A DNA stretch of 64,000 bases. Source: Eledone cirrhosa. Its lineage: Eukaryota. Positions 28,647 to 31,298 of this stretch are shown in pieces (within the stretch, counting starts at the first letter, position 1; each line of letters begins with the position of its first letter). The notes below the pieces were generated by a model. The model saw nothing but the letters and a program-made list of their open reading frames with translations. It ran no database searches and was not told the DNA's origin. Made by a program: the position numbers and the translations under genes. The stretch is taken from assembly GCA_964016885.1 (NCBI GenBank), contig OZ024760.1, forward strand, positions 12,772,001 to 12,836,000, read 5' to 3'.

Positions 28647-29316
28647 TGGCGAACTAGGTCTAAAATTATTGGTTGCCAGGAGATGAATGGTCCCACCTAC
28701 ATATATAATGATATCATTTAATTTCTATAATGAATAAATAACATTTTCAAAAAATACATAAATGAAAACAAAAACAGTGCAATTAGATTTTTGCGCAAAA
28801 ATATCTTACCTTCTCCAATAAAATATATTATGTATTTTGCGAAATCCAGAGGATTTCAATAATGACCAGAAGTCGACCCTAAATATTACTAATAGCTCTA
28901 GGAAAGCCATGAACGCCACCACATCTCTTTAACTGTGATTTTGAAAGTAGGTTTATAATTATCAATTTTCATGACACTTTTGTAGCTGTCTCAGTGGCCT
29001 AGTTGGAGGAATCATAGACGATGGTGATCCTGGTCTGAAGTTCGATTCTGGGCGAGAGTAGTGTTCCCGGTAAACCTCTTCAGTTTTTTTTCTATTGGTT
29101 GTAAAATAAAAACTGTGAAAAGGATACATGTATCTCTTGACCAGGATTGAACCCAAGACCAGGATCTCCACCGTCACTAGTACCTACCACTAAACCACTG
29201 ACACCACTACGAAAATCTTATGAAAATTCATACTTATAAACCTACTTTCAAAACGAAGTGTTGTGCTGTCGTTCATGTCTTTTTTAATGTTATTCTTCCT
29301 ACTTAAGGTCGACTTC
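28644..29316. mobile_element. Element with ~190-bp inverted arms, each containing a tRNA-like Pol III unit (copy 1)
   Basis: Arms GAAGTCGACC (28869)...GGTCGACTTC (29316). + unit 28982-29060 and - unit 29210-29132 each have A and B boxes. Duplicated at 30697-31298. Confidence 0.7.
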
Positions 29317-30044
29317 ATCATCAGATAACATGCTTTGCGGCATAAAGTTATGGCCGCTTACATTCTGATTCTAAATTCCACCGAGGTTAGCTTTGCCTTT
29401 TATCCTTTAGGGTCAATAAAATTAAGTACCAATAATCCACTGGGGTCAATTTAATCAACTTTCCCTTAAAAACTGTTGGCCTTTTGCTTATATGAGAAAG
29501 CCATTAGTAAGCAGATATTTATAACATTACTTAGCGAAAATTTCTAAAATAAATCGCTGATGGAAGGTTTTAATATAAGGATAAATATCTAAAAGTGAAC
29601 AGTTTTCTTTCGTAAATCCAGAACAGTTCGTGGAGAAAGTGGAGAAAGGGGTTGTTGGTATTAAAAGGGTTAATTGGGTGCCAAAATCTATTATTGTAGT
29701 TTAAACAAAGATGAAAGAAGATCAGTTCTTCTAAGTAGACTTGGAATCAAAGAAAGGTTCTTCAACACTTCTTCCACTAAGTAAATTTCTATTTCTTGAA
29801 ACTCTTCTATAATTTAACATCGTCTTCATTTCCTTACACAGACTATTGCATCCTGGCAGCATTGTCATGCTTTGTCTATCTCTCTGTCTGCCTGTCCATC
29901 TATATGACTGTCTCTCTGTCTATCTCTCAGTCACAGAGAGACAATCTGTCTGCCTGTCCATCTATCCTACTGATTGTCTGTCTGTCTATCCACCTATCTG
30001 TCAATTTGGCCACCTATCTGTCTATCTATCTATATACATATCTG

Positions 30045-30082
<38 letters not shown>

Positions 30083-30655
30083 AGTCTGGCTACTTGTCTT
30101 TATATAGATACACAAAGCTTTATAGCCTTGCTGTCTGAAGAAGAAGGAAGACAATGGAGGAAAGAGTAGAAGATTTTTAAAATAGATGTTCTCATAGGTG
30201 TGAGGTAATAAATGTATTGCTTGTATCTTTACAGTTGAACAGCAAACCTGATGAGCACTGCGTGACAGAGACATCATGCTGTATTTACTAATGATACAAA
30301 GACATCATCTCTTAAATCTTAACAAGTATTGCATTCTATCACATGGAACCTGGTACAATGATGTTATGTCTTTGTCTGCGAGCGGGGAAACTTCGTGTAA
30401 AATATAGGGAAAAAGATGGACGTAAAAGAATACATGTACATACATACATGCATATATAGATGTGTATATGTATGTATATATATATATATGTTCGTTTTTG
30501 AATTATATATATATAAACATACACATATGGGTAGTAGTAGTAGTAGTAATAGTAGTAGTAGTAGTGGTGGTGGTGGTGGTAGAATTGTCACAGTTGGTGA
30601 TATTGTTTTTTTCTAACGTAATGCCATTTCCTTAATGAATATGTACCATAGTTCA

Positions 30656-30687
<32 letters not shown>

Positions 30688-30696
30688 GAAGGGAGT

Positions 30697-31298
30697 CCAC
30701 CTACATATAGAATGATATCATTTAATTTCTATAATGAATAAATAACATTTTCAAAAAATACATAAGTGAAAACAAAAACAGTGCAATTAGATTTTTGCGC
30801 AAAAATATCTTACCTTCACCAATAAAATATATTATGTATTTTGCGAAATCCAGAGGATTTCAATAATGACCAGAAGTCGACCCTAAATATTACTAATAGC
30901 TCTAGGAAATGATTTTGAAAGTAGGTTTATAACTATCAATTTTCATTACACTTTTGTAGCTGTCTCGGTGGCCTAGTTGGAGGAATCATAGACGATGGTG
31001 ATGCTGGTCTGAAGTTCGATCCTGGTCGAGAGTAGTGTTCCCGGTAAACCTTTTCAGTTTTTTTTCTATTGGTTGTAAAATAAAAACTGAAAAAGGATAC
31101 ATGTATCTCTTGACCAGGATTGAACCCAAGACCGGGATCTCCACCGTCACTAGTACTTACCACTAAACCACTGACACCACTACGAAAATCTTATGAAAAT
31201 TCATACTTATAAACCGACTTTCAAAATTTTGCAAACAAAGTGCTGTGGTGTCGTTCATGTCTTTCTTAATGTTATTGCTCCTACTTAAGGTCGACTTC
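30697..31298. mobile_element. Element with convergent tRNA-like units (copy 2)
   Basis: Colinear with 28694-29316 and shares the same right end GGTCGACTTC. Confidence 0.7.

Follow-up and report, generated by a model that had tools for sequence, protein, structure and literature searches.

Facing tRNA-like Pol III-type genes as an optional cargo of a non-autonomous hAT transposon in Eledone cirrhosa

TIR transposons of animals are known to capture sequence, though such cases are rarely multicopy. In the survey of animal Pack-TIRs, hAT elements are, according to the portion of the text available, the commonest carrier (208 out of 370) and reference genomes yielded only four multicopy cases, of which one occurred in three places; the models put forward are template switching and, for the multicopy forms, further transposition (PMC8277862). 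The word tRNA is absent from the main text of that survey. Here we describe a window, i.e. the whole stretch of 64,000 nt of Eledone cirrhosa DNA that was analysed, which contains two copies of an inverted pair of Pol III-type genes together with parts of a hAT element. We hold with reasonable confidence that the pair represents an optional hAT cargo of facing tRNA-like genes that were likely captured, are likely transcribed by Pol III into two RNAs of ~93–106 nt and are probably passengers. No published description of a hAT element with such a gene pair was found in titles and abstract openings, and supplementary repeat libraries may hold the family.

The features of the two window copies are collected in Table 1. 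Two units with A and B boxes, upstream blocks and T-runs were present as given by the sequence-only reading. The arms of the window units were about 70% alike, and in the majority sequence of 50 copies 177 out of 231 aligned positions were identical between the arms. The inverted homology extended over ~225 bp and reached the central loop, in place of the ~190 bp read initially. The minus-strand A box was located correctly in that reading, but TGGTTTAGTGG turned out to be a decayed form of the majority TGGCCTAGCGG. The unit was predicted to fold into one long hairpin of -182 kcal/mol (z -14.9), a value equalled by 0 out of 100 shuffles. In agreement with the lack of a canonical anticodon arm in that reading, ARAGORN and Rfam, including the RF00005 cloverleaf, returned no tRNA at the units, and a tRNA gene identity was rejected on this account. 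Rfam matches near the unit were discarded as microsatellite artefacts, and no ORF of at least 120 aa in the window ORF list overlapped the unit.

Table 1. Positions, in window coordinates, of the features of the two copies.
Feature	Position	Strand	Remarks
5' terminal inverted repeat of the hAT element	28644..28657	+	12/14 bases as in the family TIR; preceded by a (TA)n tract
Copy 1, 5' arm (block A) of the non-autonomous hAT	28644..28868	+	
Copy 1, cargo module (inverted gene pair)	28869..29316	.	element cut off at 29316
Copy 1, left upstream block with TATA-like TTATAA at its end	28939..28958	+	36 nt 5' of the A box; likely promoter element
Copy 1, left Pol III-type unit	28982..29091	+	predicted start 28982, taken from solo copies; predicted RNA ~106 nt
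Left unit boxes	A 28995-29006, B 29040-29048	+	T8 terminator 29084-29091
Copy 1, right Pol III-type unit	29108..29210	-	predicted start 29210; predicted RNA ~93 nt
Right unit boxes	A 29197-29187, B 29152-29144	-	
Right unit T-runs	T4 29121-29118 first, then T5 29112-29108	-	T5 reads as A5 on +
Copy 1, right-unit upstream block	29234..29253	-	
Unrelated SINE-like multi-copy piece adjoining the cut copy 1	29321..29444	+	7 other matches within the window
Copy 2, block A	30686..30872	+	(TA)n in place of the first ~40 nt including the TIR
Copy 2, inverted gene pair	30873..31298	.	predicted starts 30956 (+) and 31183 (-)
Copy 2, upstream 20-mers	30913-30932 (+), 31226-31207 (-)		minus-strand one with one substitution
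Copy 2, remaining cargo (block B), then second block A end and block E	31299..31477	+	

Copy 1 was interrupted at 29316 by the SINE-like piece, which may resemble the octopus OK SINE. The 3' arm and 3' TIR were absent from the window for both copies, and the 5' TIR of copy 2 was lost. The two copies shared 24 substitutions (of 40 and 33, respectively), 8 of which were found in none of the 31–48 other copies covering those sites. On account of these shared substitutions, copy 2 is probably a local duplicate of copy 1, both descending from one decayed insertion; the homology between the two that had been read from the letters stands, but they are not independent. Taken by themselves, the copies in the window are decayed and unremarkable. 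Elsewhere in the window, the same 72-bp minisatellite was observed at 26877–27308 and 7576–8187 in opposite orientation.

A search of the host genome (3.0 Gb, microsatellite-rich) with the unit yielded 3217 first-look candidates, confirming that copies exist well beyond the two local ones. All 40 copies that were scored were nearly full length and, with the exception of the window's own first copy, 87–89% identical. Flanks were common to the copies on both sides of the unit, rendering the GAAGTCGACC motifs internal, and no TSD was found at these motifs. The ends of homology were found instead at CAGTGGCGGACTGG (window 28644), ~225 bp upstream, and at its reverse complement, 250–800 bp downstream; GAAGTCGACC and GGTCGACTTC, initially proposed as the element ends, are thus not its ends. 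Further evaluation was based on 90 of the first 100 among 338 exact matches to a 5'-end 22-mer, all located on contigs C1 and C2. Both ends lay within the fetched span at 27 of these 90 loci, the other 63 having no 3' end in range, and CAGTGGCGGACTGG formed a 14-bp terminal inverted repeat at both ends of the 27 complete elements. The TSDs of the complete elements matched at 8/8 positions in 10 cases, 7/8 in 7, 6/8 in 5 and at 5 or fewer in 5; for the 14 elements whose flanks are not alternating microsatellite, the corresponding numbers were 6 at 8/8, 5 at 7/8 and 3 at 6/8.

Short TIRs and 8-bp TSDs define hAT elements. With TIRs of 14 bp and TSDs of 8 bp, the carrier was assigned, by its sequence, to the non-autonomous hAT transposons. 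The proposed spread by a non-autonomous DNA element was in this way upheld. The accompanying notion of the arms as the inverted termini of the element was not, as the hAT element has separate 14-bp TIRs and transposes without the pair. Tandem repetition of the carrier or its parts was observed at two loci: empty hAT elements arranged head to tail with a period of ~3.3 kb (L160, C2:343.586–343.596 Mb) and a single hAT copy in which ~26 bp of the 5' arm is repeated ~15 times in tandem (L382, C21:26.10 Mb).

From a set of 846 transposase candidates, 150 were scored, and 30 short and 20 extended loci among those were examined. hAT transposase elements with both TIRs were found at 3 of the 20 extended loci (L355, L356 and L359), with the first 10 TIR bases shared, perfect 8-bp TSDs and an ORF matching DUF4371 and Dimer_Tnp_hAT; the subterminal sequence was different. 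These elements are young-looking, 4.4–5.7 kb in length and have open frames of 557–883 aa. We regard these as relatives and candidate mobilisers of the non-autonomous element, not as its proven partner.

The gene pair was present in 47 of the 90 sampled elements and in 14 of the 27 complete ones. The remaining 13 complete elements lacked the module and 5 of these empty carriers had TSDs matching at 7–8 of 8 positions. As judged from loaded and empty elements, the gene pair is an optional cargo of the hAT element. It is carried within a cassette of ~830 bp composed of a left flank (D), the pair and blocks B and C, with (TA)n at both ends. According to block maps the cassette occurs one to three times per element in tandem, and at the usual junction the hAT arm meets the cassette at a shared GACC. 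The exact upstream 20-mer had 2433 occurrences in the genome, non-transposon paralogs included, compared to 0 for a control. All 22 independent 20-mer loci examined on C1 were of the transposon type, and in 17 of these hAT parts lay within 1.5 kb. The copy number of the pair is probably over a thousand, which is an estimate and not a count. Complete cassettes with no enclosing hAT sequence within ~5 kb were also seen (L197 and L198). At L257 and L199, the pair is surrounded by whole element halves that form larger inverted duplications, perfect or nearly so, which suggests that the hairpin promotes rearrangement.

Related genes were also sought outside the transposon. A pattern made up of only the A and B boxes gave 171 non-transposon matches, many near contig ends. 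Paralog arrays were found near the ends of C5, C6, C8, C9, C10 and C13, a 282-bp tandem array was found on C18, and the paralogs often occurred as facing pairs ~500 bp apart. The upstream block, which was not part of the search pattern, was present in 25 out of 30 box-only loci, and the 5 loci without it begin near the predicted start. A total of 142 full-length units, overlapping loci included, were reduced to 28 distinct paralogs at 90%. Compared to these, the hAT arms were 96% identical in the upstream block, 71–89% in the boxes, 50–59% between the boxes and ~30% further upstream, where the box identity is partly built in, since box patterns and an arm-seeded profile served to collect the paralogs, and the members are mutually related. 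The spacing from block to A box was 36 nt in 23 of 30 members, and that from A to B box was 45 nt in each of the two arms as well as in 24 of 30 members of the family. An A box, a B box, tRNA-like spacing and a T-run terminator, i.e. the features of type 2 Pol III genes, were all found, and the boxes, spacing and T-runs of both arms agree with the convergent pair of Pol III-type units proposed initially.

The nearest non-transposon genes were ~75–80% alike to the hAT arms, and some of them form facing pairs; the exact parent pair of the cargo was not found among the non-transposon genes recovered. By its sequence features the cargo is a facing pair from a resident family of tRNA-like Pol III-type genes, and capture of the pair from this family is likely. 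Four of the paralogs (L265, L294, L272 and L299) have two or three tandem B-box-like segments that arose via internal 19-nt duplications. RNAalifold gave no consensus fold for 30 family members; in the 5' stem 127 out of 139 cells were paired, with changes that were only invariant or one-sided. The predicted RNAs folded no better than shuffles (z -1.5 to +1.6), and no tRNA match was obtained in 8 paralog and solo loci. Comparison of the arms to 12 tRNA-like sequences of the same genome reached a best z of 3.6, which is nothing decisive, with 63 of ~552,000 candidates scored.

Several other tRNA-like loci were noted. A dense tRNA-Thr-like cluster of 5–7 genes within 3 kb lies at C1:243.65–243.68 Mb (L182 and L184). 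A dispersed repeat with a tRNA-shaped copy and shared flanks was found on several contigs (L183 and L185–L193). Since the ARAGORN anticodon calls differ among these flank-sharing copies (Ala, Val, Thr and Asp), they likely constitute one mobile family and not tRNA genes. Within the window, a tRNA-Phe(GAA)-like copy called by ARAGORN at 10525–10597 on the minus strand has no T-run directly behind it and may be a pseudogene.

Traces of transcription were sought in solo copies of single arms, employing patterns that favoured copies broken immediately 5' of the head and left the 3' end unselected. These gave 15 matches, of which 5 had the 5' break, and 4 of these 5 also ended at or just before the T-run; breaks at the T-run were observed in 4 of 53 left arms inside elements. 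Four solo arms start at the predicted transcript start. The solos were fused in the same direction to a SINE in three cases and to a retroelement-like 3' tail in one. L311 and L314, together with their SINE, lie within 15–18-bp direct repeats, which overlap with the tail of an older SINE; in L305 the repeat encloses ~70 extra bases, and L309 has no direct repeat. In a tree of 72 columns, which cannot place the parent, the solos grouped with the hAT left or right arm at 100/99 and 98/93. A third solo search, with a pattern that was out of register, gave 0 out of 14. Among the 8 paralog solos, 4 end at a T4 run, including L249, which terminates directly behind its T4 and is flanked by a 20-bp TSD; 3 end earlier and 1 runs past.

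Because solos with transcript-like ends group with either the left or the right arm, both arm types have likely been made as separate RNAs of ~93–106 nt in the germ line. The template of the solos may have been the parent pair instead of the transposon-borne copies. The sequence-only reading had further envisaged a long hairpin RNA formed by read-through. As a main product of Pol III this is disfavoured, since the solo copies end at the T-run.

The fate of the boxes after insertion was evaluated on 47 copies that were picked by their 5' end only, the rates from copies picked by module or 20-mer being discarded as biased. Critical box positions were changed at 29 out of 490 and 28 out of 455 sites, compared to 33 and 31 expected (O/E 0.87 and 0.90). 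In this sample the transposon-borne boxes decay at the background rate, an outcome that the sequence-only reading had itself named as counting against it. The upstream blocks were under-mutated in the transposon copies (O/E 0.51 and 0.56). These values are not distinctive, however, because 20-nt windows without a known role, in the hAT arm and block B, reach O/E 0.43–0.65. As their promoter signals decay like the surrounding DNA, the transposon-borne gene pairs are probably passengers with no function.

The following course of events would be consistent with these observations. The cassette may have entered the element by template switching in gap repair, at a (TA)n tract and a GACC microhomology, the shared GACC junction being of the kind that template switching would leave. 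The loaded element would then have been spread in trans by a hAT transposase. On the evidence of the solo copies, TFIIIC would bind the A and B boxes and TFIIIB the TATA-like block, transcription of each arm would stop at the central T-runs, and the RNAs would occasionally be reverse-transcribed as chimeras with SINEs. After insertion, the boxes in the sampled copies decay at the background rate.

The reading as an optional hAT cargo was weighed against other explanations. The 448-bp palindrome could itself be a foldback element or MITE with the long arms as termini, given the perfect 10-bp inverted motif at both ends, arms that are ~70–77% alike and the nearly full length of 40 out of 40 scored copies. 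The flanks common to the copies on both sides and the TSDs, which sit at the hAT TIRs and not at the motifs, contradict this, as does the homology between arms and paralogs, which begins at the upstream block instead of at the motif; we give this explanation almost no chance. That the ~830-bp (TA)n-bounded cassette also moves itself, e.g. by ectopic-repair copying between TA tracts, with the hAT element being one host, has more in its favor but is nevertheless unlikely. The cassette is repeated in tandem inside elements, adjoins (TA)n at both ends, and was found without enclosing hAT ends as 2 complete and 5 partial cassettes among 20 loci that were extended to 9.9 kb and mostly picked for having no hAT parts nearby. 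However, 17 of the 22 independent 20-mer loci have hAT parts within 1.5 kb, and many hAT copies have themselves been truncated, 63 of 90 having no 3' end in range, so that lost ends can explain the orphans.

Two further explanations concern what the arms do. Co-option of the transposon-borne pairs as functional RNA genes or paired TFIIIC insulator sites would account for both arms being intact in the majority sequence, for the promoter layout kept by the family and for the under-mutated upstream block. We regard it as very unlikely given the background decay of the boxes in 47 copies not selected for the module, the lack of an RNAalifold consensus fold in 30 members with 5' stem changes that are invariant or one-sided, and the decayed right A box of the window. 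Conversely, the arms could be dead pseudogenes of tRNAs or SINE heads without any history of transcription in this form, the solos being chance DNA fragments. A breakage hot spot at the hairpin tip (4/53), together with paralog solos that end before the T-run (3/8) or run past it (1/8), would permit this. Little credence was given to it, since in 4 of 5 solos both ends coincide with those of the predicted transcript and the fusion to a retroelement end is in the same direction, and L249 ends just after T4 with a 20-bp TSD. Separately, a SINE identity was rejected on the grounds that the copies include DNA from upstream and are enclosed by hAT ends, with only rare solos looking retroposed.

The spread of whole Pol III-type genes, promoter and terminator included, to high copy number by a DNA transposon adds a way of amplifying small RNA genes to those by retroposition and by tandem arrays. 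Within one family, loaded elements could be compared to empty ones as a natural control for the effect of new paired TFIIIC sites on chromatin. In annotation, such repeats are at risk of being taken for SINEs or tRNA pseudogenes. It is further conceivable, although we consider it unlikely, that a captured working pair from an undescribed cephalopod-type Pol III family was multiplied more than a thousand-fold into active paired TFIIIC/Pol III sites giving complementary small RNAs, or long hairpins by Pol II, with some copies acting as chromatin boundaries or dsRNA substrates.

Among described systems, the rodent 4.5SI and 4.5SH genes have a similar Pol III layout with a TATA-like element near -30 (PMC10137851). 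Unlike for the units described here, the 4.5SI/4.5SH and ape snaR RNAs were experimentally shown, and the available portions of these texts describe neither spread by a DNA transposon nor facing pairs; the likeness is one of gene layout, with no sequence relation implied (PMC10137851, PMC3045588). The TRIMp3 elements Helenus, Ajax and Cassandra are likewise non-autonomous and spread tRNA-like or 5S-like Pol III promoters, two per element, yet as far as their description is available they belong to the LTR retroelements and have a PBS, a PPT and 4–5-bp TSDs (PMC10886601). The two copies here, in contrast, are inverted, lie internally and can be dispensed with, and the TSD has 8 bp; identity with TRIMp3 (Helenus) was rejected as the arms are inverted and not direct LTRs. 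U6/LINE and U6/SINE chimeras, in the text at hand, resemble L311 and L314 in that a small RNA precedes a retroelement of like orientation and a single TSD encloses both, while the small RNA here comes from an uncharacterised family and only four such solos were seen (PMC4476161). Overall the case resembles capture by Pack-TIRs, with a cargo and a copy number that are unusual for that group. The hAT element with its pair would work like a multicopy Pack-TIR, with the parent of the cargo represented at ~75–80% likeness only. Both are TIR elements with captured internal host sequence and microhomology at the junctions, according to the portion of the survey available, but here the cargo is a Pol III-type gene pair with promoter and terminators, in probably over a thousand copies (PMC8277862).
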